This document shows, piece by piece, positions 778 through 45,029 of a DNA stretch of 64,000 nt; the first letter of the stretch is position 1; each line of letters starts with the position of its first letter. The notes beneath the pieces were generated by a model. That model was not told where the DNA came from, searched no databases, and worked only from the letters and a program-made list of their open reading frames with translations. Made by a program: the position numbers and the translations under genes. Source of the stretch: Neophaeotheca triangularis (taxonomy: Eukaryota); assembly GCA_054600435.1 (NCBI GenBank), contig BAAIJX010000005.1:124001-188000 (forward strand), given 5' to 3'.

Positions 778-3500
778 TCAAATCCCTGTTCGACTTGGCT
801 GTACACTTTCACCGTAGGTGCTTCGCTCATCCTCAGTCTGAACCTTCGTCACACCATCATCAACACTCCCACACGCGGCGTCGATCGCTTTCAGCTCGTC
901 GTCGAGAGCGCTCATCCTCAACACAAACTCCTTCTGCAGATCCCTCAGCCACTGACTTAGATCCCTTGCGTCCATATCGCCGTCTTTCGCCTGCATAAGA
1001 TGCTCCTTGAGATTCAAGAGTAGTTTCCGTCGACGAGCGTGAACAACGGCAGCCGACGTCGTCTTCCTCTGCTTGGCCTGCTGAACGAGCGTGTCCGAGA
1101 CATATTCCGCGTGCTCCACTACACCAGGGGGCAGAGGCACGACTCTCGCGAGTTTCAGACCGTAGTGCTCCTCCTCGACGGCGCCGGCGGATATGCGGTA
1201 AAGCATTTCCATCTTGTCCTGCTCGCTCGTGTCGACGGCGAGGTGCAGGTTTATGACGCCGTTGCGCTCAGCCATGATGTTTGCGAGGTCTCGGAAATGG
1301 GTGGCGAACCACACTAGTGCTCTGCTTTCGACGAGTGCTTCGGCGATGGCGAGGGCGATGGCGAGGCCGTCTCGTGTGCTAGTGCCCCGGCCGAGCTCGT
1401 CGATGATGGCCATGCTCTGACCGTCGACGTTGCGCAAGATGAAGGCGGTCTCGCGCATTTCGGCCGCGAAGGTCGACACGTTGGCTTCGATATTGTCGTC
1501 CATGGAGACTCGTGCGAAGAGCTGCCGGATGATGGGGAATGCTGCGTACTGGGCTGGTACGAAGCTACCTACCTGAGCCATGATAGACATGAGGGCGACA
1601 GAGCGGATGTAGGTGCTTTTACCGCTCATGTTGCAGCCCGTGATGATTTGAAAGCGCGTCTGCTGGGTCGCGTAGACGTCGTTGGGTATGAATTTGCTTG
1701 ACTGGATCTTCTCACGAACCGGATGACGGCCAGCACGTATGGCGAGAGTGTCTGACATCTGCGGTCGAACATAGTCGTGTGAAGTCACCAGTTGAGCGAA
1801 AGCAGTCATCATGTCGAGCATAGCCAATGCCTCACATATTTTGAACAAGACGGACATGTGCTCCCTCACGTTATCGATCAAATCTTGCACGGCCTTGTCG
1901 CTCATCATCAAGACCTCGGTGTGCGAATCGGCAATCTTTTGGTTGAGCTTCATAATGTCCAGAGTCTGACATTCGATCCAGTCGTTCTTGCGAAAAACAT
2001 TAATGAAGACTCGAGGCAGGTTTCGCTCCAGTAACTCAGAGGCCGAAAGACGAATGTAGAACTGCCGCACGCCATCGAACTTCGTCTGCAAAGCCAGGTC
2101 ATGCTCTTCGGCCAAGTCAGTTATATGCTGATACGCATCAGTCATTGCTTCCTTGTAAGTCATTCTGGCAACGTCAAGCAGCCCGTTGACTCCAGACTTG
2201 ATAGCGTAGGTACGCTGGTTTCTCAAGTCGAGAGGTTTCTTTGCAAACGTAGTGTCCTCGTTGATCACGTCGTTGATGAGATTCTGCACCGGTTCCAGGT
2301 TCTCAGCAGCACACAGGTTACGGATCTCAAGCAGCATGAGACAACGGCAGCCTGCAAGGGCCTCCCAAACAGGCCTGACCAGGTTCGCAAACTGCTTCAG
2401 CATGATGATGTTGTTGATAGCCTGCTCCGTTTCCTTTAGGTTGGCTTGTACCGGAATGAGGATCATTTGGGTGAGCATGCGGTCGGCGTCCAGAAACGGC
2501 TTCAGTGCAGCGCGAGTCGTAAAGAACATGTCTTCCTTAGTAGTCAGCTCTTCGAGAGCGTCGTAGCGCGTGTTGAGAGTATCGATGTTGGTCAGAGGCT
2601 GCAGGACGTTGCTTCTTAGAAGTCGAGCGCCCATTGGAGTCTGCGTCTCGTTCAGGTGACCGAATAGACAATGCTTCGATTTGGCGTTGTGCAGATTCTG
2701 TACGAGCTCGAGAGAATGCATAGTCGACAAGTCAATCATCATGGAACCCTCAGATGGCTCGTATTTGATGCGCAGGGAACGGAACGGAAACGTCTTCTCA
2801 AGCGCAAGCTCGATGAATTTGAGTACCTGAGGTATGGCAATCAGCGCAACACACCGGCGTTGATGCTCAGGGTGAGACTTACGGCTGCCAAGCAGCACAC
2901 AGCGTAATAGTTCCCGTGGACGGCCGTCTTGATAGATTCGACATCGTCAGCAAAAGCAAGCTGCTGGATGTACTCCAGCCCCGTAGTTTCAGCCCAATAG
3001 CGGCGATCAAGAAGTTGCATCTCACACCCAATGTCGTCGAGGCTGTCCTCGATGATAGAGAAAAGCTTGGACTTGTGGTTGGCGGCTGACCCTACGATCA
3101 GGATGACAGTGGGACTGTACACGATCAGCTTGTGGATAGTTCTGACATAGGTCTGGCTATCGCTGATTTGACTGAGCACGGCCTCGCCGGTAGCCAAGTT
3201 CACAAAAGCCAGGCCAACGGTGGGTGAGATTCCTCGAGACTCGCTGACGGCGCAGATGATCTCCTGATTCTCAGCTCCCAAGGTGGAGGCTGCTGTCCGA
3301 GGACGTGCAGTACCTGGTCTGGTGCGATATGAACGCGACGTTTGCGGCCTCGAGAGAGCTGTCGCGTTGTCGTTGGTGGTGTAGTACTGATTCGAGGCTG
3401 TCGCCCGTGAGGTTCCGCTATGGCGAGCCATGCCCGTCCTATCGATGTCGACCGAGCTCATGGCGGTCGAAACCGACGCAGCCCTCGTGTTCCTTGCCAT
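778..3500 (-). CDS. MSH4: MutS homolog 4, meiotic crossover protein (2 exons; intron 2827-2882)
   Basis: MutS ATPase motifs ITGCNMSGKST, STFAAEMRE, IIDELGRGTS and FATHF. N-terminal ICAVSESRGISPTVGLAF is typical of fungal Msh4. A GTAAGT...CAG intron joins ORFs 2841-3563 and 778-2898. The first ATG is at 3500 (3563 is TTG). Confidence 0.93.
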
Positions 3501-4487
3501 AGCGGATATCCTTTGAGCCTTCTCGATGATGGTGTTTTGGCGGTTGCTCCGTTCGTTGAGCAATGAGAACTAGGGGATGAGGTCTCCAGGCAGCCGTGTC
3601 ACGAGCGCGACGCGCCCAACTTTGACTTGATCCATCATCCCGATGCACGTCTCTGGTGCGTATAGGTAAGGTATGGCTCGCCTCTCTATATTGTTACCAC
3701 CTTACCTATGGTAGGTACCCAGTGACGTTCACGAGACTGATTCAACCGACAAACACCTTCAACCTTCACCTACCTTACCTTACACCCGTTATTACTCTGC
3801 TGCTGGTGTTGGTAGGATTCCAGCGGCGAATGCCTTCAAAGCAACCCAAAGCAGGCCTGTAATGTCTGTTGGCACTCGCCGTCCATCCCCTGGCTTGTTG
3901 CGTCTACAATGGTTCATCATGCTTGAGCTCTGAAGCAGACACCTAGCAAGAATGGCACTGCTTGCATGCCATCGTCACCCGGGCATCCACAAGATCATGA
4001 CCGCCCAATTTCTCCCTCATCAACAGCCAGCGTGGCCGATGGAACATGAGGAGGCACCAGACCAAACAGGACCGAGACGAAAAGACTACCTAACAGTACT
4101 CGAAGTTCCCGTCCGTGAAAAAGGAGAAAATCCCGTCCCCGCCACAATTGATCACTTGGCGCAGTCCGTGAGAGACCTCGGCTTTATTGGAGTTGAGGAT
4201 GATAGATAGGGTAACGACGAACCTAGCAACGCTCCCCTTCGTAGTAACCTCTATCGGTACATCGGCAGGACACACACACGCAACGACAGAGCTCTGATAA
4301 TCGACGACTTAACTTTGCAGGTGCAATTGGCAAAGCCCCGATCCCGCGCATTGAACAAATGTTGTAAGTGCAGGTCAGAAGCCATTCGATAGTTTCACAA
4401 AGCAGCCCCCAGGTAGGCAGAGATATATTTCAGTGCTCGTCTATCCTTCTCTTTCGTATGCTTTTCGTTCCCTGAACGAGGCCTATC

Positions 4488-6584
4488 ATGGTAATACGGC
4501 GCAATAGCACCGAAGACGAGGGGGTAGAGCTGAGGTATGATAACTTCTGGAGGTTCTCACCAAGCAATGAACCCAAGGGAAGCGGGATGACTTCGCATAG
4601 ACGATATTCGAGTAACAGTACGAGGCCGCCATCACGAACCCGCAGAGCGCACAGCCCTGCCCACGAAAGTCTGGCACCTGACCTCAACGACGAAAACGGC
4701 GACGCTCCCCAGCATCCCGTCGAAGAGGAAGACAACTTGAGCTTCAGCCAGAGGGACAGCGTCATTGATTTCGACAAGCAGCGTGAAGCATCAGATCTGA
4801 AAGCCGGTAAGAGCAGTACGAAAGAAGAGGAGATGCCTGAAGAAGATGCCATTGCACAGATCGACGGCGCAGTAGCGTCGCGAGAACAAGACACCGAAGC
4901 TGGACCACTAGAGTCACAACGACAAAATGCAGCAAAGACCGAGAGGGATCCAAACCTAGTTACTTGGGACGGTCCCAACGATCCCGAGAACCCCCGAAAC
5001 TGGAGCATGAAGCGCAAATGGACGGCGACGTTTCTAGTCGGTTGCTTCACTTTCATCTCGCCGGTCGCTTCGTCGATGGTGGCGCCGGCTTTGAGCACCA
5101 TCGCGCAGGAGTTCAACACATCATCCGAACTCGAGTCTTCGATGGTGCTTTCAATCTTCATTCTGGCCTACACAGTCGGGCCACTTCTTTTTGGACCGCT
5201 GAGTGAGCTTTGTGGACGCACGATGGTGTTGCAGGGTGCGAATGCTTTCTTCCTCGTCTTCAATTTGGCTTGCGGCTTTGCGCAGAACAGTGGACAGATG
5301 AATGCGTTTCGCTTTCTGTCGGGAATTGGAGGCAGTGCGCCTCTTGGAATAGGCGGCGGTAAGACGACAACACTGAGAATAAGACGGTGCAACCCAACAC
5401 TAACAATCCTTTGAAGGCACTCTCGGAGATTGCTAGCAGCCTCATGAGCGAGGCAGAGCCTTAGCCATCTACTCACTGATGCCTTACCTCGGCCCGGCCG
5501 TGGGCCCTTTAGCAGGCGGCTACATCACGGAACATACGACCTGGCGGTGGGCATTCTAGGCGACATCCATCGGCGCCGGCGCCATCCAGCTCGGCGGCTT
5601 CTTCCTCTTGCAAGAGACATACGCGCCAGAGCTACTACGTAGGAAAAAGGTCGCTCTCATCAAGGAAACCGGAAACCAAGCCCTGCGGACGGAGTACGAC
5701 AATCCATCGCGGACTTTCGTAAACCACATGCGCGGCGCCCTCGTCCGGCCTTTCCGCCTCATCCTAACGCAGCCCATCATCCAAGTCCTCGCCTTGTACA
5801 TCGCCACGGTCTACGGATACATGTGAGCTTCACCACCCCACCCCGCACCCCTTCCCTCACCCTCCATGCCACAAGCCAACTAACACCCACCACCTCCCTC
5901 CCAGGTATCTCCTGATCGCGTCATTTCCGCGGCTCTGGACAAGCCCCTCGTACTACAACCAAAGCATGGGCGAAGCCGGTCTAAACTACATGTCCCTCGG
6001 CGCGGGCTTCTTCATCGGCACGCAACTAACAGCGCCCTTCAACGACCGCATCTACGCGCACCTGCAGCGCAAAAACGACGGCGTCGGGCGCTCCGAGTTC
6101 CGCGTGCCGCTCATGGTACCGGGGAGCTTGATAGTGCCTTTGGGCTTGTTCTTGTACGGCTGGACGGCCGAGACGCGGCAGCATTGGTTCTGGCCCAACC
6201 TGGGAGCGGCGGTTTACGCTGGCGGCAGTGTCGTCATTTTCCAGTGTGTGCAGGTGAGTTTTTCCATGTCTCCCATGTCTGGGGGCCAAATGGAAGTGTG
6301 AGGGGCGCTGAGCTGACGGACCTTGCGTCCCTGTTTGGAAGACTTACTTGATAGACGCTTACACGCTGTACGCGGCTTCTGCGCTCGCGGCGGCGGTGGT
6401 TTTGCGCTCCTTGTGCGGTTTCGCTCTGCCCTTGTTCGCGAGCTACATGTTCGACGCGCTGGGTTATGGCTGGGGGAGCACGGTGCTGGGGGTTTTTGCT
6501 ATTGTGATTGGACTGCCGGCGCCGCTGCTGTTGTGGAAGTACGGCGAAGCGCTGAGGGCGAGGAGCAAGTATGCGGCTGGGTAA
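4488..6584 (+). CDS. MFS drug:H+ antiporter (DHA1-like), 4 exons (introns 5359-5416, 5823-5904, 6254-6341), interrupted by in-frame TAGs at 5434-5436 and 5557-5559 (editing-dependent gene or recent pseudogene)
   Basis: Motifs VTWDGPNDPENPRNW, GPLLFGPLSELCGR, LGPAVGPLAGG, QETYAP, EFRVPLM and YLIDAYTLYAASA. Splice sites are canonical and keep the frame. Exon 2 reads GTLGDC*QPHERG...TTWRWAF*ATSI. Confidence 0.88.
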
Positions 6585-6962
6585 GAGTCTCGGGTGGACG
6601 TTTGGGGTGAGGTAGTGGGTTGAAGGTTGGGGGTGAGCGAGAGGGGCTTTTGTCGCTTGCTGCTGTCTGTGGTACCTGTGAAGCTATTTACATCTATTAC
6701 GTGACGCAAGTTTCGCGCCTTCATGCCTGTATGCTGCTATGGCGGGGTGCTGTGTCTTCAACTACCTTTATGGCTGCGAGCTGCCAGGGGTTCTTCTCGC
6801 AGAGTCTTATTTCCCAGTCCTCGCAACCCGGCGGCCAGGGCATGGTTCTACCGAGAATGTATCCCCAATGGTCTTCTCGGTGGTCAGACGCAGCAAAGTC
6901 ACAGCTACTGACCATCGACACAGCCTCGCACCAAGAATCGCTGCGCCTCTCCCACCCCCATC

Positions 6963-8519
6963 TCAGCACATGAACATCTTACAAGTACTAACATTAACCC
7001 GGCTCCACTTCCTACCCAACACAGCCGCAAAAGCAAACTGCACCGGCCAATAAACGTGATACAACCACCAGGCCGGCAACGGGTCCCAAAGCTCATACGT
7101 GCCATCGCACCAGAAAAGCACGTGCTCGGCGAAAGTCGTCAGGCTCTCAAAGACCTCGCGGAAGCTAGGACCGTCGCGGGAGAGTAGCGAAAGCAGAGGG
7201 AGCAGGACGAGTTCGATAAAGTCGTGGCCGATCCAATAGTATTTCTTCGGGGCGGTGGGGAACATGGGGAGCGGCGCTGTGCCGTTGGGTGTAGGGGGTT
7301 GGCTGGTGTTCTTCTTGTCGGCGGGGCTGGCGCGCTTGGGCTCGAGCAGGCTGAGATAGGCGTCTGCCATCTCGGGGGTTTGGTTGAAGAGGACGACGGC
7401 GGTGTGCGCGCGCGGATTGCACTCGATGGGGTAGAGTTTCACGTTCTTCGAGGGGTCGCGGAGCGCGGCCTCGGCTTCGTTCATTTCCACCAGGAAGTCG
7501 AAGGAGCAGTGGCCCGTGAAGCTGCTGCCGGCGGCGGCCGCGTGCTCTTGTGTGAAGCGCAGCATGCTCATTGTCAGGCCTGAGTCGGCGGGCAGGGCTT
7601 CGTAGTGCATGAGGAGCTCGCTGGAAGGGCAGGCGACGAAGGCCTTAACCTCGCCGCGCACGACCAGGGCGTGAGTACAGTATTCGGGACCGCGGATGTA
7701 TTGTTGCAGGATCCAGGGTCGAGCTTCGGAGATGGTGAAGCGTGAAATGTGCGCTTTGGTTGCGGCAGGGGTGGCCAGAGGTAGGGTTGTCATATCGCCT
7801 CGCACGGCGTCGTCGGTGCCAATGTACTTCATGATGTAGCGTTTGTTTTTCGCCGAGGCGTCTTCGAGGACTTTGAGCATGGCTGCTCGGGACGTGACGG
7901 TGTGTGTCTCCGGGATTGGTAGGCCAATCGACTTGGTGTGTTCCATGAAGCTGTGCTTCTCGTGCAATCTCGTCGTGTTGGCGATGTCGAATTGTACCGC
8001 TTTGCAGCTCGTTGTTCGTTCAACCATCTCCTTGGCCATGCCATCCTCAACGGCTGAAGCTACACCGGAGCAGGACACCCAGAGATCTACCTTCTCTTGC
8101 TTAACGATGTTGGCAATGCTCTGCATGTACCAGTCTTGTCCCTCCTTGCTACCATCTGGCTTTCGAAGCTTGTGGAACGCCCTTAGCGCTTTCGAGGTCC
8201 TACCGCAAGCCGTGGGCAGCAATGCAGGCTCAAAATCTGCCCCTATCACGTTGTGACCAGCGGTGTAAAACAGACGAGCGAGCGCGAGGCCTTTTGACAT
8301 GCCCACGCCCGTGACCAGGATGGTGCGCGGTTGGAAGTACGGCGTGTACGGCGACCGCACATGGCGACGGTGCTTGATCGCGGCGGGTGTGTAGAAGAGT
8401 CGCGAGCAGTAGTTGGCGAAGAGGAGGAAAGTGTCGAGTGGGAGGAAGACGAAGCTTAGGAGGATGAGGGATATGTTTTGCGCCGCGTGTTGCAGCCAGG
8501 ACGAGTTGGCGTCCAGCAT
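6963..8519 (-). CDS. mysC: ATP-grasp amino acid ligase of mycosporine biosynthesis (MysC-like)
   Basis: TILVTGVGMSKGLALAR, PWILQQYIRGPEYCTH, FVACPSSELLMHY, SFDFL and IECNPRAHTA. Adjacent to the O-methyltransferase and DDGS genes. Confidence 0.88.
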   Translation of the reverse strand: MLDANSSWLQHAAQNISLILLSFVFLPLDTFLLFANYCSRLFYTPAAIKHRRHVRSPYTPYFQPRTILVTGVGMSKGLALARLFYTAGHNVIGADFEPALLPTACGRTSKALRAFHKLRKPDGSKEGQDWYMQSIANIVKQEKVDLWVSCSGVASAVEDGMAKEMVERTTSCKAVQFDIANTTRLHEKHSFMEHTKSIGLPIPETHTVTSRAAMLKVLEDASAKNKRYIMKYIGTDDAVRGDMTTLPLATPAATKAHISRFTISEARPWILQQYIRGPEYCTHALVVRGEVKAFVACPSSELLMHYEALPADSGLTMSMLRFTQEHAAAAGSSFTGHCSFDFLVEMNEAEAALRDPSKNVKLYPIECNPRAHTAVVLFNQTPEMADAYLSLLEPKRASPADKKNTSQPPTPNGTAPLPMFPTAPKKYYWIGHDFIELVLLPLLSLLSRDGPSFREVFESLTTFAEHVLFWCDGTYELWDPLPAWWLYHVYWPVQFAFAAVLGRKWSRVNVSTCKMFMC

Positions 8520-8602
8520 CTTTGGAAAAGCGTTAGTCGGGCCAAGAGGAGTGCAATGGCTCGAGTTGTGAGGGTGTCCGTCAGTAGTAGTAGCTTGCCT
8601 AC
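8520..8602 (-). other. Probable 5'-UTR intron ending immediately before the mysC ATG
   Basis: Minus-strand GTAGGC donor at 8602, CTAAC branch point, and AAG acceptor abutting the ATG at 8519. Confidence 0.6.
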
Positions 8603-9169
8603 CGGAAAATGTTGAGCCTTGCAGGTTGCACGGTTCTCTTGCAAGGTGTTGGGTCGACGTCGAAGTTGGCTTCGAAGGCCCTCTTAAAGAATACCTACGC
8701 TCTCTGCAATTTTCGCATTCACTCGCTGTTTACGTCACCCATTGATCTGATATGCCTGAGACTGGGCGAAAGGGCAAATCGTGGTGCCCTAGTCATAGAT
8801 GCCATGTTATGCATAGTTGTAGAATCAAAGGTGCTGAGGACTTCACAAAGCTGGCTGGAAAAGGTACTGAAATTAAGTGACAGAAAGCGTCTACGCTGGT
8901 AGCTTTGATTGAACGGCCTATGGCTTTTGAAGAAGACAACACGGGTTCGAGTGTCTAAGCAACATCTCATTGACGAGCTTCTGTCTCTACGCGTACGAAG
9001 CGACCGTCTATCTGACAAGTCTGACATGCACCCTCGTTATGCCTACGGTCCCGATCTAGCAGCTTTTCGCTGCAGGAGGTATCCGTAGATGTCCTCCTCA
9101 TCTGCCACAGTCACCGACCTCGTCTGACTTGCTAGTCTCCTTAGAACCCAACTGTCTGGTCTGAGCATC

Positions 9170-31128: not shown

Positions 31129-34100
31129 CTACCTCTGCACAAAAACCGGCACATCACTCATATCCACCCCCCAGGCCTCGGAAAGCTTAAGACCCTTCCT
31201 GGCGCCGCCATCTCCACTCGCTCTGGTACCGGCACTGCCGCCAAAACCCTCCCCGCGCTGCCAACCGTACTCGAAACCGCCGCTGTAGCGATCGTGAAGA
31301 GAGTTGGGGCTGGATTTGGCCGGTTGGAGGGATTGGAGGGGCCGCGGAGAGGGGCGGTAGGTTTGGTCTTGCTGTGGTCGATGTGGTTGCGGTGAGGGGG
31401 AGTGATAGGAGTAGTTTTGGTAGTGCTGTTGGGGAAGCGCGGGAGCGATTTCGGGCTCGTTTTCCCCGTTTAAGCGCGCGAGACTGTGGGTCCGGGCGCG
31501 TCGGGTCGTGGAGCCGTCTGAGGGCTGCGAGGTGTGGTGGGTTGTTTGGGTAGTAGTCGGGCGGGGCCGAGAGCGGGAGCGAGCTCGAGAGGTTGTTGTT
31601 GTCGTGGTAGTGTTTGTTGACCCGGTACCGCTTGAGTGCGTGGTGTGGTGGACGCCTGGACCCTGAGAGCGAGTGCTCGTGGTTGTAATGGGTGAGGCAG
31701 AGTGAGGAGGACAGATGACGGTCTTGCGGGATCGGCTTCGGACGACGGTGGTGGGGGAGTGGTAAGTTTGGGTGGTGGTGGAGCCTTGTGCGTCGTTTTT
31801 GGCGGGACGCTCGTTAGGGGCGGTCGTTGTGTAGACCACATTGGAAGATGCGGTGCTTGCGCTCCCGGTACGGGCCATGTCTTCTTGCGCAGGTCGATTC
31901 TCCTTGTCGTCAGTGTCTAGCATTCCGCGGTACTCATCCGCATACTGGCTTGCGCTGCCATTCTGCTGAGGTCCAGCGTTTGCTCGCGCTGCGTTGTCGT
32001 CCCCAAGAGGGGTGACGTAACGAGAGACAACTATCGAAGGCGCATCAGCAGGCGAGTCACGTGGTCCTGAGCGCTTCGTACTTGTCGTCGTAGTTGTCGT
32101 CGTAGATGTCATGGGTTTCTTCGACAACGTCTCGCCCAGTGACTGGCGACGCTGTTTCCAAAGCTTTGCTTGCGCTTCCCAACCAGCCATATCGGGTTGC
32201 TGCGATTCTTGCGGAGACGAGATTGGCGAGACAGCCTCTTCCACGTGTTCTTGCTGCACGCGACCGGTCGGCTGACTCGAGCTGCCTTGTTGACCATCTC
32301 CCGCATGGCGAACAGATGGCATGGGCCGTTCCGAAGCCTCAACTTCATTTGCATCAGGCACTGATCTCGGCGCCGTCTCTTGCACCCCAGCTGTGCCAGG
32401 TACAAGACTTTCTTCCGAATTCGAGTTTGAGTTGCTCAACTCGCGAACAGCGACATTGAACTCCCGCTTTACAGCAGTCCGATTGAGCGGATGCAGCAAC
32501 TCGAGCTTTTGATCTTCGGCCACCTGTTGGCTGTCCTCGCTATTTTTGCGCGATGAAGATCCACGCGCAGGAGACCCACGTGCAGGCGACTCCTCCTGTC
32601 GCCTCCTCGCCGCCACCATCTCTTTGATATACTTGTTGCTCTGCTGCGGACTCACGTTGCCACTGTTGCGCTTTGAGCTAGTCGGCGAAGACCTCGCGCT
32701 ACTGTTGAGCTTCTTCTGCATGGCCTCTTCGGCCTTGGAAGCTTTCACACCGACGTCGGCAGGGAGCTCAGGCAAGGGTGGAATGCTCTCCGCATAACTC
32801 TTTGGTCGAATAGCCTTGCCAGGATCTTTCTTCACTTGCTCGGGATTGGCAGCTTTGCCATTCCAGCCCGGGAAGCGCTCTTCAACCGAGGACGATCCAA
32901 CGGCGACGGCATGTTGTGGCGCCTGCGCAGGTGCAGTTTGCGAAGACCTCACAGATGCCTGCGAAGCTCGCGGTGTGGCCATGCGCGGTCTTTCACGAGC
33001 CGGATCCGTGTTCTCGCCAACAACATCCCTGCTCTTCTTTCTGGCGAGTTGAGAAGCCATTTCTTCGGTCATGCCGGTTTGGTATGATTCCTTGGGTGTG
33101 ACAGTTTGTGGACGCTCTTGTGGATGCTCTTGTGAGAGAGTCGCAGGCTCAGGGACGGCATCACGGCTCTTCTTCCTCGCAAACTCTGATGCTGCCTCCT
33201 CAGTCATACCAGCTCTGATGAAGCCATTGCCAAAGGCATGCGGTGACTGCATATGCCACTCGGCGTCATCGCGCTGAGCGGAGCTGCTACGGTGGAACTG
33301 TCTCGTCGAGATGTCGTACGGGTTGGAGCCGAGAGAAGCTGCTATGGCTGCGTAATCACTATGATCATGCAAGTCATCTTCGCTAGCCATGCGGTTAATT
33401 TGCCGAGAAGCATCTTCGCCCTCGTTTGCTCGTGCCTGGCTCTTGCTCCTGGCACGGCTACGGCTCCGGGCTCGAAAATTGAAGATACTGGTCTTTTTCC
33501 TGTCTGGTGAGTCTGATGCTCTCTCTGTTGCCATCTCCTTCTTGTGTGGTCTGCCTCTACTCTCGCTTCGGCTGAACGATCGCGAACGTTGACGAGAGTC
33601 ATCTGCAGAAGACTGCCTAGGCGTAGCAGTCTCGATACTCGGCTGCACCTCCACGCTCGGTTGTTGTGCTTCTGTACCTGGCTGCGGCTCCTCGCGATCA
33701 AGCGCCTCTTGCGAATCAGTATGATCAGTAGAAGCGTACGTCTGCTCCAAATGGCTCCTAGATGGATCGTTGGAGAGACGTCGAGTAAAGGAAGCGGACA
33801 AAGCCCTCGGGACGGCTGGCAGCGAGTCACGCTTAACATCATGCTTCACCTCCTCCACCTTCGTCTCCTCGACTTTGCTCTGCTTGCGTTTCTCCCTCTC
33901 TTTGTCCTTTTTCGATGCTGGCATGGGCTTCTGTAACTTTCTACCAGGTTTCGCACCCAGGCTGGTCTTTCTCTCAGCTTTTGGCGAATCGGCAGGTGCA
34001 GAGGCAGTGGTCGCCAGCGAGTCTGTTGAAGCGCCGATCATGGGCATGCTGTTGCGGTTTACTGACTTTCTGCTCCGGAGACCCATGAACCTGGATTGCT

Positions 34101-36074
34101 TCTTTTCCGAATTGTTGGACGCAGGGGATGCTCCAGGCGAGCTGACAGGTAGATCAGGGATTGCGAGAGCCTCGCCGAAGGTGTACAAGCTTTCCGTTTC
34201 CGCTTGCGTAGGATTTGGTAGTTTGCGCTCGGGACGTGGTTCAAGTTGCTCGCCACCTTCGGGTGAAGAATGGTTTGGCCCCATATCGGCACGTTGGTTG
34301 CGCTGTAGACCCAAGCGAGAGTAATCTGAAGAGTACCCGCTATCAGCCTTCTTCTCTGGTACAGGCCTCTTCAAATGGCGTGCGGACTGACCATCATTAT
34401 CTTGTGCAACCTCCTGCTTCAAAGTCGATGTTCTAGAAACATCGTCGGATCCTGTAAGCTTATTTAGAGCTTCGTCAGGAGTACCGCGTCCGTCGTCGCT
34501 CATCTCGGAGTTGACGTCGTATACGGTGCTCAAGCGTGTGGCATGATGATCGAAGTTTGCCGTACCATAAGGGCTGTCGGGAAGCTGGCACTCATCCATG
34601 TATTCCTGGGAGTAAGCCGAAGCCTGATGGCTCCGTTGAGTAGTATAGGGACGTGTCGATTGCGAGGCTAAAGGCGCTACATCGTCTGCCTTTTCGGCTT
34701 CCGCTGCTGCTACATCAAGCTTCAGCGGGATTCGGCCGTAAGAGCCTTCGCGGGAATGTGTGATTTGCGAGTCTGATCGACGGTACCGGTGACGGGGGCT
34801 CTGCTGGAGTTGCGAGACGATGTGGTTGGGCGGCCTGCCTGGGGAAAGCATTGACTCGTTGTGTGATTTACGCGAAGGCCCAGCGTTCGCTGTGGGCCCG
34901 TTTTCCGTTCCAGCAAAGTAGCTGCCCTCATCCTCAGGCATGGCAGCTTGTTGGCGGTCGCCCGGTCGGTCCCTACGTTGGCCCGGTTCTGGAGAGGGTG
35001 CGCCATTCGTCACATGGAGAGTGCCGGGTGTGAAGCCGCCAGTGTAAGCGTAGCCTGTGTCGGACGGAGTTGCCGAGCGCATGTCTTCGGACTTCTCGGC
35101 GAGGTCAAGCGCAGCAAGCGCAGCAGCAGCGCTCGGGGCCACTCGTTGTCCCCAGTCGGTATATTCGGCCACAGAAGGGCATTTTTGCTGTTGCTGTTGG
35201 TGTTGCTGGTGTTGTGGTTGCTGTTGTTGCTGTTGAGGGCTAGGTCTGTCTTCGCCCTGGCGCCTGAGAGGGTCGCCAGAAGCACCGCCTCTTGTTGCAA
35301 AACCAGGAGGTTGCATAGACCGACGTCTAATCACCGAGGATCGTCCTTGCAATTGCATATCGTTCCCATCGTGGACAGGACTCTGGACCGTCTCAACATC
35401 TCTCGTAGGTAACAGTGCCCTGTGTAAAGCCACCAACTCCTCGGGAGAAGCGTTCTTTCTAAGCTCTTGCAGAATGTTGATGGCAGCCGCAACGTCAATG
35501 GGCTGGTGCTCTTGTGTCACGGAAGGTCTCCTTGCTCCTACTGTGTCGAGTGTCGTCGAACTTGACTGCGCGCTAGCATTCCGACCAACACCCAGCGAGC
35601 CAGACCTCGCCAACCTTTCCTTGACATTCTCCACAAAGTTCCCCATGTTGACGCCATCAACGCTCTGTTCTTGAGCATTGTCGTCCGCGCCCATGGGAAA
35701 TGTGGCGCTCAAATGCTGTCTGAGGTTTTGTCGAGCATCGGGCCGTCTGAGGTCGGACACGGAAGTCCGGAGTGGGAGATCGGGGTGGTCAGTAGCTTGA
35801 GGCCGACCGTTTGTGAAGGTGCTGGAGCGGGAGCCATGGACAGATTCGAAGGTTCGGGGTTTGTTCAGCTTCATGTTGTTGTTTGAAGAAGAGGTTTGAG
35901 AAGCGTCGCCGGTCCAAGGCAAGGGGGAGCTAGACGTCAAGCAGTGTTAGCAATGATGCATGACGTGGAAGGTGTAGAGTAGTGAGTGCAGCATGATAAA
36001 ACTCACTTTGCAAATGAAGGTGAGGTGACATTGGGGGCAGTGTTGTCACCGCTAGGCCGGCGTGCGTACTTCAT
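31129..36074 (-). CDS. Large low-complexity hypothetical protein (~1620 aa; intron 35930-36006)
   Basis: 4.8-kb open frame. A short first exon (MKYARRPSG...) joins in frame via GTGAGT...CTAAC...TAG. Structured islands are ILQELRKNASPEELVALHRALLP and DRYSGGFEYGW...GFGGSAGTR...GVDMSDVPVF. Confidence 0.8.
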
Positions 36075-41384: not shown

Positions 41385-42785
41385 CTAATCCTTGCGCTCA
41401 ATCAGCTCCGGAATGTCCTCGGGCTTGTTCTTGCCCTCGAGGATGTTGTAAACGGCGGTGAAGAGCGGGTACTCGTCCTCCATTTTCTGGGTCTTGAGGA
41501 AAGAGTTGACATCGTAGGCCGTGCTCGTTCCCTGCAGTTTCTGGCCGTTCAATTCTCTCTCTTCGATCTCGCCAATGGGGCGCTTCTCCGCCACGCTCAT
41601 CTTCGCGCATCGGAAGTTCCTGCCGCCGCTGCAGCTCGTGATCATGTCCGCGATACCGCAGCTCTCCTCAGTGAATGTCTCGGTACGAACGAGGCCAGGA
41701 AAGAAGGCTTTGCCGAACTTGACTTCTTCCATAATACCAACGCGCATGACAGCGGCTTTGGCGTTGTCGCCCCAACCCAAACCGTCGACGTAGCCGGCCG
41801 CAATCGCTACGACGTTCTTCAGCGCACCACCCAGAGAGACGCCAGCAACGTCGTTGACCATGCGGACGTGGAAGTAGGGACGGTGGAAGAGCTTCTTCAT
41901 GTTGGCGTGCGTGAGAGGCGGGTACTCGGTGGGCATGGCTTGGAGCTGAGTAGTCTTGCCGTTGGTGGTCTTCGTCTCCATGTTCATGGCGGCCAAGTTG
42001 GTGGAGCTTGACTTAGGGGAACCGGAAGGCGTGGCAGCGGGCGTAGGGTGCTTGGAATCCATGCGTGGGGGGTCGTAGGCGATGGTCGTCTCGCAGAACT
42101 TCTCCAACGCGACTTCGGTAGCGATGTTGGCCCCAGACAGCGCACCACAGTAGATTCCTAGCTTATGTCCAATGCTGTCCGAAAACAACTCGCATCCCTT
42201 GTCTGACACTTCGACACCCTTGATGCAGCTGATACCCCTAGCAAATGGCACGATCTTTCCCTTTAGGCTGTCGCAGGTCTTGCCAATGAACTGGTGGGGA
42301 AGGTTGAAGATCAGGATCGTAGCATCCTTGACCGAGTCGGCGAGATCGGGGTTGGCGACGATGTTGTGAGGGATCGGGATATTAGGCAGGTACTTGACGT
42401 TCTCGTGCAAGCCATTGATGAGCTGGGTAAGCTTCTGCGGCTTGGTTGAAAGCTGCGAGCCGGCATCGTAGTGCTTGCTGGAGCTTGGGATCTGGTATTC
42501 CTCCTCAAACACCCACATCTGCACCTCGGGTTCGAAGAGATCGGGATACTGCTGAGTGGACTCGGCGACAACTTTGGCAATGGTCGTGCCCCAGTTGCCG
42601 GAGCCTACAACGCAGACCTTGTGCTTCTTGCTGTGGATACCGAGTGAAGATGCCATGTTTACGGTCGGTTGGTAGGTGTAGTTTGGTCTTGGTCTGTTTA
42701 GTGAGTCTTTGAGTGGTTGAAGAGCGTTTCTTCGAGTAGATCGAGGGAAGACAGTGCGAGGAAGTCGTGCAAAGGTGTGCAGCAT
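41385..42785 (-). CDS. GPD1: NAD-dependent glycerol-3-phosphate dehydrogenase; second in-frame ATG at 42656
   Basis: [65 protein letters not shown] and LNGQKLQG. Confidence 0.96.
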
Positions 42786-45029
42786 GAAGAGAAAAAATCT
42801 TGTTACACAAATAGAAGCGACTTACGGTGAATGATGTAGGAGGTAAGGTAGTTCGGATGTTATGCAATTGAAGGACGGTAGGTCTTTCTTCACGTGTAAG
42901 GTAGTTCTCGGCCTGTTCGAGGTCAAACTTGCCAGTCACATGTGACGTTCTTCCCAGCTTTAAGTTTTCCAGGATCTTGGGAACCGCGGCCCACCTGGCG
43001 CGTTTCTCAGCGCGGAAGCCACACCGCTGCGATGCGGATAAGCGGACTGTGAAGCCGACCTCACCTCTTCTTTTTCCCAAATCACCGCAAGAAGCTTCCT
43101 CAGTCATCTCGCCGGGAGCGAGTTTGAAAGTTGTCGAAAATACCCAAGTATGTCAAAATTTCTCAACCAGTTCTCGACTGCAGTCTTTCCATCGATATCA
43201 GGAACGCCGCCCTAGTACAAACCCGCGAGTCGTCTCAAAGAAAGGGTCGCATGGTAGTGTCATCTGGCGGAACATCGACCTTGGAAGTGCTGCCAGCCAT
43301 GCCGCTCCGATGCCTAGCATTACAGATATCGGGTTCACAAAGTCAAGAATCTCCAACTTTATCAAAGAAACTGCTACTGCTGAACGACGATTATTCAATG
43401 GCTGCGTACCAAAGTGCAAAGAAGAAGCACTACCGATGAAGCATTGACGGGACGGGAGGTCCAAAATGCAAAAAGCCCGCATCTTGGATCCGCGCGTGGT
43501 CACCCACCTAAGTACCAGTCACGCGATTACTTGCTTGCAGGGCCTCTAGGCGGACGAGCAAAACCAATCTGCCAAAAGCAAAAAAGATACGGATGAATCG
43601 GGTCGTCATGCGCCTGTTCCCACAGCCGGCTTACTGTCCTAGGCCTTACTTTTTGATTTGGTTGTGGGGATTGGCACTGTATAGAATATATAGCCTTCGA
43701 AATATATCCGTACCGCGGCTGTTGCACACCCTTACGCACTCCACGAGCTGGCAGTGAGGCGAAGACGTGAATAGCCAGTGAGCCACTGCGTAGTCGCACG
43801 ATTGCACGATGTTGATTAGATACGAACATGTCAGCCATGAGCTGCCTGTCGTAGACCCATTATTGTTTGTTTTGGTCCCGCGTCTTAGGTCTACACAAGT
43901 GCGCTGCTATATCCGCCTGCCGTTCAGCTCAATATAGGGGACGGTCACTGCGCAAGTGCCTGTTGGTCTGGCAGACGCTTGCGCCTGGATATGCTTTACA
44001 CCGAAGCAGACTACAACTGGCTCCAAAACAGGTCGTTTTTGAATCGATGCCCAACGTGCAAACCTTTTGCAGATCGACTCTGCGCATCGCAACGCTCTCA
44101 CGAGATCTTCCGCCAGCCTCCGGAGTCGCAGCCCTTGCTTCAGAGAGACGCTGCTTAATTTCAATGCTCTGGTCCAACCCGTCTGAGCCCTAAGAACTGA
44201 TGAACTGGCGGACATGCTCAACACGATGAGGGACAGCAGAACTCGACCATGTTCGATCATTCCGATACTACTTGCATGGAACGCTCTCAGCTCTGCTAAC
44301 GTGGCCGAGCCCTGCTCAAATCACCGAATCGCATCACCCGCCGTTCAAGCCGCGTGCTAGGGGATAGAAAGCGGATGAACCTTCGGTTGCTCAAATATTG
44401 AAAGAGTAACTCGCGTTCACAAAGAGCGTATTAACATTGCATGCGTATCCCAGGCAGCTGTGAAAGGCAACCTGCTCTAACTCACCTTGATTGTGTACTG
44501 CGCACTGTGATTGCCTGCTGCAGCATGATGAATCTGCTCGAAATTGCTATCTATCCACGACAAGACATTGTCCTGGATATAAAGTGAGAGCGTTCTCTCC
44601 ATGGGTAGCAATAGATCTAAGATAGCTCACAGTACTCTACTGCACCACTGATATACCGTACTACCCCTGACGTAACCTTCACCCACTTGCACCCTCGGTA
44701 TCTGTTTCTTGTGTTAATATATTGCATCCATCCATGGACCCCTCTCAATCCTCATACACCGCCCTCCGTCTTCGCCGCTGGGATTTGTCGTTATTGCCTA
44801 ATCTGTCATTACGGCCTCAGGTTGCTCCCGCGCCTTCCTCTTTTCGAAACCGGCGGGAGGTCCCGCAATCAAGAGAACAAAACCAGGCTCGCGGTCCCCT
44901 CCAGGCCTTAGACCTTTGATCTACCTACCAAACCCAACCATCCTCTCCCTTCACCACCATATTGGTCACACCACTCCTACTTCATATCTCCTACGCCTTA
45001 TAACACTCTCACCCACCACACCAGCCAAC

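Follow-up and report, generated by a model that had tools for sequence, protein, structure and literature searches.

Two in-frame TAG codons in a constrained DHA1-type transporter gene of the black yeast Neophaeotheca triangularis: possible mRNA recoding in a Dothideomycete

The closest described parallels to the locus reported here are the premature-stop-correction (PSC) genes of Fusarium graminearum and Neurospora crassa (PUK1, AMD1, CHE1, PSC01-71), in which a genomic TAG derived from TGG lies within conserved coding sequence and A>G changes are known from RNA. For F. graminearum 71 such genes have been reported; six carry a pair of sites, and most of the TAGs in the set derive from TGG (PMC10776026). 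The enzyme behind this adenosine-to-inosine (A-to-I) editing of mRNA is the universal tRNA deaminase Tad2/Tad3, acting with stage-specific isoforms and cofactors (PMC10962958, PMC11156358), and rare editing, including one stop correction, has been described in vegetative hyphae (PMC11169179). Which classes of the Pezizomycotina have mRNA editing is an open question according to a recent review (PMC11156358). We describe here a gene of Neophaeotheca triangularis (Dothideomycetes, order Neophaeothecales), found in a stretch of 64,000 nucleotides (GenBank assembly GCA_054600435.1, contig BAAIJX010000005.1, positions 124,001 to 188,000 of the forward strand), which we call the window and in whose own coordinates all positions are given. 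The gene encodes a DHA1-type major facilitator superfamily (MFS) transporter; its only internal lesions are two in-frame TAG codons, and we find it to be under strong purifying selection at the protein level.

The transporter gene shares several traits with the PSC genes. Its TAGs, best read as former TGG codons, stand in conserved coding sequence; there are two of them in one gene, the rest of which is intact and constrained (compare PMC10776026); each target adenosine has U at -1 and G at +1, neighbours that are fixed by the TAG codon itself; and, as with PSC genes, the public annotation is truncated or mis-modelled (PMC10776026, PMC11156358, PMC5496914). It differs from them in that the present gene is known from DNA only, whereas A>G in RNA is known there; in that its host is a Dothideomycete black yeast, from a class for which no report of mRNA editing was found; and in that neither adenosine falls in a predicted hairpin loop. 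An earlier note on this DNA, made from the letters alone, had remarked that such a case would be notable if the genome lay outside the Sordariomycetes, as it does. The same note had drawn a parallel with AMD1, which holds only loosely: both proteins have an MFS domain, but AMD1 is a protein of 1386 amino acids with the domain at 618-840 and a different architecture (PMC5496914), and orthology with AMD1 was rejected on that ground.

The gene occupies 4488-6584 of the forward strand in four exons (Table 1). Its spliced coding sequence (CDS) of 1869 nt yields 622 residues when both TAGs are read as sense and contains no frameshift and no stop besides these two and the terminal TAA. Exon 1 ends with a single base of a split codon, after which exon 2 translates as GTLGDC(TAG)QPHERG...WRWAF(TAG)ATSI. 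In Pfam, MFS_1 matches exon 1 with 49.6 bits (residues 186-284) and exon 2 with 56.7 bits, against a cut-off of 33.4, and the exon 2 alignment extends over both TAGs; Sugar_tr is matched as well. Members of the DHA1 family have twelve transmembrane helices, the fifth of which carries the antiporter motif G-x3-G-P-x2-G-G; in the letters of the present gene, LGPAVGPLAGG between the two TAGs is a candidate for it. We considered whether either TAG could lend its AG to splicing as an acceptor and rejected this, as the frame then shifts into early stops. Sequence, reading frames and spliced CDS together bear out the earlier description of two in-frame TAGs with no frameshift or other stop and with three canonical introns, and the observation of two in-frame TAGs in an otherwise intact MFS gene is confirmed.

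The same two codons were sought in other sequence collections. Among DNA datasets, sequence words of the gene occur in an air metagenome (X1, share 1.00) and by two samples of one organism, labelled organism A (X2, share 1.00; X3, share 0.55), and contigs, not raw reads, of X2, X3 and two further samples (X4, X5) were compared with 4000-8800 at 80% likeness. X2 gave one independently assembled contig that is identical across 4000-8800 at a word depth of 128; X2 is a possible source of the window, and hence not an independent sample, but an identical assembly at this depth makes an assembler slip unlikely. In X3 a single contig (record 5) spans 4925-8156 with 40 differences, three gap letters and a depth of 109.3. 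The X3 depth bins between 4966 and 8024 all stand at this same 109.3, save for 108.7 in the bin 6898-7058, and since they match the single contig there is no other X3 piece over the TAG sites; the sole X3 piece not itemised must sit at the left end of the stretch, where the only bin with depth not accounted for is found. Of 78 rows of X3 differences, the 40 listed are all fully supported, are sorted by position, reaching 6599, and include all 14 differences of record 4; among them are changes at 5442 and 5517 and none at 5435 or 5558. We therefore read X3 as a second, diverged sample of the same organism that carries both TAGs. A 72-residue open reading frame (ORF) call that starts just after the second TAG (P0242) was found on two Logan contigs, the longer of which (5722 nt) also bears the exon 1 ORF at 100% identity, and the exact ORF expected from TGG at the second site was absent from the Logan collection searched. 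Assembly error is very unlikely.

Some side observations on the samples may be noted. X4 and X5, labelled as other organisms and with small shares, gave only near-identical low-depth pieces of 151-222 nt, away from the TAGs. The air metagenome contains all sampled words of the gene and X4 and X5 contain short traces, a distribution which suggests that N. triangularis or its DNA appears as a trace in these unrelated samples. At two places in X3, 4004-4180 and 8127-8256, the contigs come in pairs of about half depth, with one arm of the latter pair identical to the window, which indicates that X3 contains two haplotypes. Haploid and diploid isolates of N. triangularis have both been reported (PMC13064199).

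The divergence between the window and X3 allows selection on the gene to be measured. In the conserved core (codons 158-622) all 14 differences are synonymous, 13 of them at third positions and one a TTG>CTG change, for a synonymous rate (dS) of 14/344, or 4.1%, and a nonsynonymous rate (dN) of 0/1051. The introns have diverged by eight substitutions in 228 nt (3.5%), close to core dS, with three substitutions in intron 1, three together with a 2-nt insertion in intron 2, and two in intron 3. The disordered N-terminal tail (codons 13-106; window 4488-4805) serves as an internal control and shows eight nonsynonymous and two synonymous differences. Five of the tail differences lie upstream of Met34, an alternative start of the transporter; the true start may be Met34, with the first 33 codons belonging to the 5' untranslated region. 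Under neutrality, with kappa between 1 and 4, the chance that all changes are synonymous is 3e-9 to 4e-8 for the 14 in the core, 2e-5 to 6e-5 for the eight at or after the first TAG, 3e-4 to 7e-4 for the six within about 190 nt of a TAG, and about 0.02 for the three in codons 298-393.

The X3 differences nearest to the stops, both of them between the TAGs and both synonymous, lie 7 nt from the first (5442) and 41 nt from the second (5517). Differences so close to the stops leave no room for a young block of identity around them, and the age of the TAGs is therefore at least about that of the split between the samples; synonymous-only changes built up in a gene that already carried the TAGs. 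All five of the insertions or deletions that separate X2 from X3 in 4000-8800 fall outside both the MFS CDS and the ORF at 6966-8729 (three upstream of the MFS gene, one in intron 2 and one in the spacer between the two coding sequences). The earlier note had proposed to check whether the TAGs are conserved with a dN/dS below 1 downstream; run on two samples, the check gave TAGs conserved between strains and a dN/dS far below 1, X3 being synonymous at every one of its eight differences at or after the first TAG. The gene is under strong protein-level purifying selection.

Relatives of the transporter indicate what the two codons used to be. Among 15 homologues the first site is W in 11 and F in four, and the second W in 12 and Y in three; among 29, the first is W in 13 and F in 16, and the second W in 16, Y in 12 and H in one. 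In these alignments the two sites are aromatic positions and not strictly Trp, and an expectation of Trp is thus partly right: it holds for the closest relatives, while F and Y are frequent in the set of 29. The ten closest homologues (P0001-P0007, P0009-P0011) all have W at both sites, and for this reason a G-to-A change of TGG in the N. triangularis lineage is the best reading of each stop. In its Pfam matches and its full-length alignment the gene is like the fungal DHA1 MFS drug:H+ antiporters of Hortaea, Meristemomyces, Aspergillus, Metarhizium and others; it differs in having stops at two positions that are filled by an aromatic residue or by His in all of the 29 homologues aligned. The alignment to these 29 is collinear, with no majority column missing in the core and a mean identity of 0.60-0.70 by segment.

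In public databases the gene is represented by a protein of 296 amino acids, [quoted passage not shown] at NCBI (P0121), which the exon 1 search matched with identity and coverage both at 100%. As this protein is exactly as long as exon 1 with GTLGDC added, the public model was terminated at the first TAG and comprises 296 of the 622 residues. Among the matches listed, the best named homologues of exon 2 come from Hortaea werneckii, Meristemomyces frigidus and "Dothideomycetes sp." (70-72% identity), the next-best relative of any kind is the Logan protein P0001 (79-80%), and no relative was found between 100% and about 80% identity; exon 2 identity to named full-length proteins is 57-72% in the aligned set and 55-72% over all those named among these matches. 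A metagenome scan with exon 2 returned three loci of only 45-64% identity, which are uninformative on the state of the TAGs. Same-species copies were sought in the window and among the 120 listed homologues; none was present among the latter, so no backup gene is evident, and on these comparisons the gene appears to be the single-copy orthologue of an MFS "multidrug" transporter of DHA1 type that is widespread in fungi.

Purifying selection of this strength means that the full-length protein must still be produced. Ribosomes probably pass through both UAGs, and recoding is probably needed for them to do so. We suggest that two ancestral TGG (Trp) codons became TAG in the genome of N. triangularis and that A-to-I editing of the mRNA would convert each UAG to UIG, which would be read as UGG, with Trp restored at both sites. 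As the unedited mRNA would give only a 296-residue stump, the pair of TAGs would serve as a switch that confines the transporter to conditions or stages in which editing is active, and it is in this sense that we infer that editing gates its expression. We favour UAG-to-UGG editing as the best-fitting mechanism because it is the sole process that would restore exactly the ancestral Trp, and G-to-A change of TGG is the sole nonsense change that it exactly reverses; nevertheless we regard the case as evenly poised. The wider proposition, of a Dothideomycete black yeast with efficient UAG-to-sense recoding (be it by A-to-I editing of the ADAT (adenosine deaminase that acts on tRNA) type, arisen or persisting outside the Sordariomycetes and Pezizomycetes, or by a novel route) that forms a double gate for a drug/H+ antiporter, is put forward tentatively, as somewhat likelier to be wrong than right.

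The ancestry of the stops can be set against the routes by which a stop may arise. In the present CDS, TGG>TAG accounts for 12 of 53 transition routes, to which 165 transversion routes are added; with the two ancestral TGG codons included the count becomes 14 of 57, again plus 165. The chance that two random nonsense hits would both be TGG>TAG is about 0.01-0.06, before allowing for the gene's selection by its TAGs. As for sequence context, the preferred editing site has U at -1, A or G at +1 and +3, and the adenosine in a hairpin loop. Beyond the neighbours dictated by the codon, the first site has the preferred A at +3. Of the edited sites in Fusarium, about 62% fall within hairpin loops, and folds are customarily computed over 61 nt (PMC9600606).

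A number of points weigh against editing, and we gather them here. The gene was picked for its TAGs, which weakens the argument from both being TGG>TAG. According to the review cited above, A-to-I mRNA editing is known only from the Sordariomycetes and Pyronema, with none found in Aspergillus nidulans or Botrytis cinerea (PMC11156358), and a literature search that included Zymoseptoria gave, in the excerpts it returned, no report of it in Dothideomycetes. The sequencing runs listed as holding words of the gene are DNA only, with no RNA dataset among them. In the local context, C at +3 of the second site and C at +2 of the first are both non-preferred; in predicted folds of 61 nt A5435 is paired within a stem, A5558 falls in an interior loop, and a hairpin loop contains neither; no predicted fold around the TAGs is better than shuffled sequence (z 0.35 and 0.78); and the X3 change at 5442 would disrupt a pair of a small hairpin predicted in a 31-nt fold. 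By these models the cis evidence for editing here is weak. The window also yielded no second gene of the kind: a listing of frames in which two open stretches, each at least 40 codons long, are linked through a TAG gave 73 read-through candidates (together with 112 TGA and 56 TAA control frames, the Pfam search covering the TAG frames only), and a Pfam domain runs across the TAG in one of the 73, this transporter, although the window is too small for a second such gene to be expected. Finally, the window protein deviates at six of 126 columns that are invariant in the 29 homologues, where the homologues in turn deviate at 0-4, and in each of three segments its identity to the family falls a few points short of the value for six control members; the deviations at invariant columns hint at some past relaxation or at an isolated long branch. 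The TAG state of X3 is itself inferred from rows absent among the 40 of 78 listed, and contigs can mask a heterozygous variant.

The last two of these points, together with the choice of the gene by its TAGs, also speak for the most serious alternative, that of a young null allele or pseudogene in which the TAGs are plain loss-of-function changes, possibly of the type caused by repeat-induced point mutation (RIP), and the synonymous pattern was laid down by selection before the gene died. A pseudogene is the default reading for internal stops, the public annotation ends at the first of them, and both changes are TpG>TpA, the RIP dinucleotide. This account would be possible if X3 were in fact without the TAGs, or if recombination had joined old selected variation to young stops. 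It has to contend, however, with 14 of 14 core changes being synonymous, including both of those between the TAGs, so that young TAGs would need recombination within a few bases; with the lack of any frameshift, other stop or coding insertion or deletion; and with the chance, about 7% or less from site counts, that a second nonsense hit would precede any missense hit.

The RIP variant of this alternative, which the earlier note had raised as mild RIP pseudogenisation, fares no better. RIP is generally called at a TpA/ApT above about 0.89 and a (CpA+TpG)/(ApC+GpT) below about 1.03. The transporter gene does not reach these thresholds, its values being those of the window mean (TA/AT 0.74 vs 0.73; (CA+TG)/(AC+GT) 1.18 vs 1.20), and its GC content of 0.57 lies within the 0.55-0.59 found around it. 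A tblastn search of the 64-kb window with the spliced protein recovered the gene itself and no duplicate. Like the RIP-mutated pseudogenes of filamentous ascomycetes, the gene has stops that are both TpG>TpA; it differs from them in its lack of AT enrichment, its normal indices, its lack of a partner in the window and its lack of any missense load against X3. The RIP reading is supported solely by that dinucleotide, which is common to every TGG>TAG change, and it is disfavoured by window-average indices, the lack of a copy in the window, the retention of the TAGs in X3 and the 14 synonymous changes. A decaying or RIP-mutated pseudogene is accordingly disfavoured, and we regard the null allele as unlikely, though deserving of serious consideration.

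It is also conceivable that both UAGs are decoded while the mRNA remains unchanged, by programmed translational readthrough or by a suppressor tRNA. This would explain the purifying selection downstream equally well, and the insertion of an aromatic residue should be tolerable, given Phe at the first site in 16 of 29 homologues and Tyr at the second in 12. The codon that follows the first TAG is CAG and the base that follows the second is G; CAG after a stop is a leaky context, which counts for readthrough, and a following G is a strong termination context, which counts against it. Two internal readthrough events would multiply into a very low yield, and the TGG ancestry of both stops would be left unexplained. 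At UAG in yeast, Gln, Tyr or Lys has been reported to be inserted (PMC4150775). Programmed readthrough genes likewise have an in-frame stop followed by conserved, selected coding sequence, but there a single stop stands near the end of the ORF, whereas here two stops, both from Trp, stand in the middle of a membrane domain. As to suppression, the glycerol-3-phosphate dehydrogenase ORF (41388-42821, reverse strand) terminates in TAG seven codons past its C-terminal domain, so UAG is not generally suppressed; four further long ORFs of the window also terminate in TAG, and no tRNA gene was found in the 64 kb. Judged by the ORFs of the window, TAG is an ordinary stop in this organism, which tells against its genome-wide reassignment to sense. 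We consider readthrough or suppression improbable.

A further alternative dispenses with recoding and holds that the truncated products are themselves functional, namely an N-terminal fragment of 296 residues and, optionally, a C-terminal half made from an internal Met at codon 394, each acting by itself or both jointly. Split MFS halves are able to assemble in other systems. Selection on both halves would follow from such an arrangement, and codon 394 is the first in-frame ATG after the second TAG and lies before the last six predicted helices. Codons 298-393, however, would be in neither product, and their three differences are all synonymous; the stretch with the antiporter motif, which lies between the TAGs, would go missing; and reinitiation past an ORF of 296 codons is not expected in eukaryotes. 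Split products are, in our estimation, highly improbable. That the stops are an artefact of sequencing or assembly, or of a wrong exon model, is scarcely credible, since no evidence for it was found and, even with contigs compared in place of raw reads, X2 is identical at depth 128, X3 at depth 109 is unchanged at both sites among the rows listed, ORF calls break at the second TAG on two further Logan contigs with no TGG version in the collection, and the AG of neither TAG preserves the reading frame as an acceptor.

The neighbours of the transporter are ordinary genes. Besides the features in Table 1, the window holds a methyltransferase, a CN hydrolase, a kinesin, a DAGAT, Stk19, the glycerol-3-phosphate dehydrogenase, an aminotransferase and a Set1-type methyltransferase. 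For the MutS homologue, Pfam gave no match to domain I. Compared with PDB entries it stands equally far from bacterial MutS, from Msh2 and from Msh3, and the Atlas clusters closest to it are "mutS homolog 4" (0.98) and MSH5 (0.97). By these likenesses it looks like an intact meiosis-type gene and offers a lead on a possible sexual stage. To our knowledge, no sexual state of N. triangularis is known.

Table 1. Positions of the transporter gene, its two internal stops and selected neighbours in the 64,000-nucleotide window.
Feature	Position	Strand	Remarks
MutS homologue	781-3569	-	Domains II, III, IV and V (Pfam)
Exon 1	4488-5358	+	Disordered N-terminal tail and first transmembrane segments; start Met at 4488; from frame and Pfam MFS_1
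Intron 1	5359-5416	+	GT..AG, 58 nt, phase 1
Exon 2	5417-5822	+	Carries both in-frame TAG codons; Pfam MFS_1
TAG 1	5434-5436	+	Codon 297; W/F position in D-C-[W]-Q-P-H-E-R-G; end of annotated protein
TAG 2	5557-5559	+	Codon 338; W/Y position in W-R-W-A-F-[W]
Intron 2	5823-5904	+	GT..AG, 82 nt
Exon 3	5905-6253	+	From tblastn of the spliced protein on the window
Intron 3	6254-6341	+	GT..AG, 88 nt
Exon 4	6342-6584	+	Terminal TAA at 6582-6584
588-codon ORF	6966-8729	-	Convergent with the transporter; GC content at third codon positions (GC3) 0.71; no Pfam match at E 1e-5
1605-codon ORF	31132-35946	-	Ends in TAG; no Pfam match at E 1e-5

We note that N. triangularis is a culturable Dothideomycete and offers a direct case for the question of which Pezizomycotina classes have mRNA editing. 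If editing of the two UAGs is true, restorative editing would be older or wider than the cases in the Sordariomycetes and Pyronema, and the annotations of black yeasts would wrongly truncate such genes. Fungal mRNA recoding would then gain a further class and might reach into vegetative, stress-related physiology. If the full-length protein is made without editing, this would point to a readthrough of two internal stops, which would itself be unusual. In either event, stops that are common to diverged strains and have only synonymous change nearby provide a search image that may be taken to other genomes.

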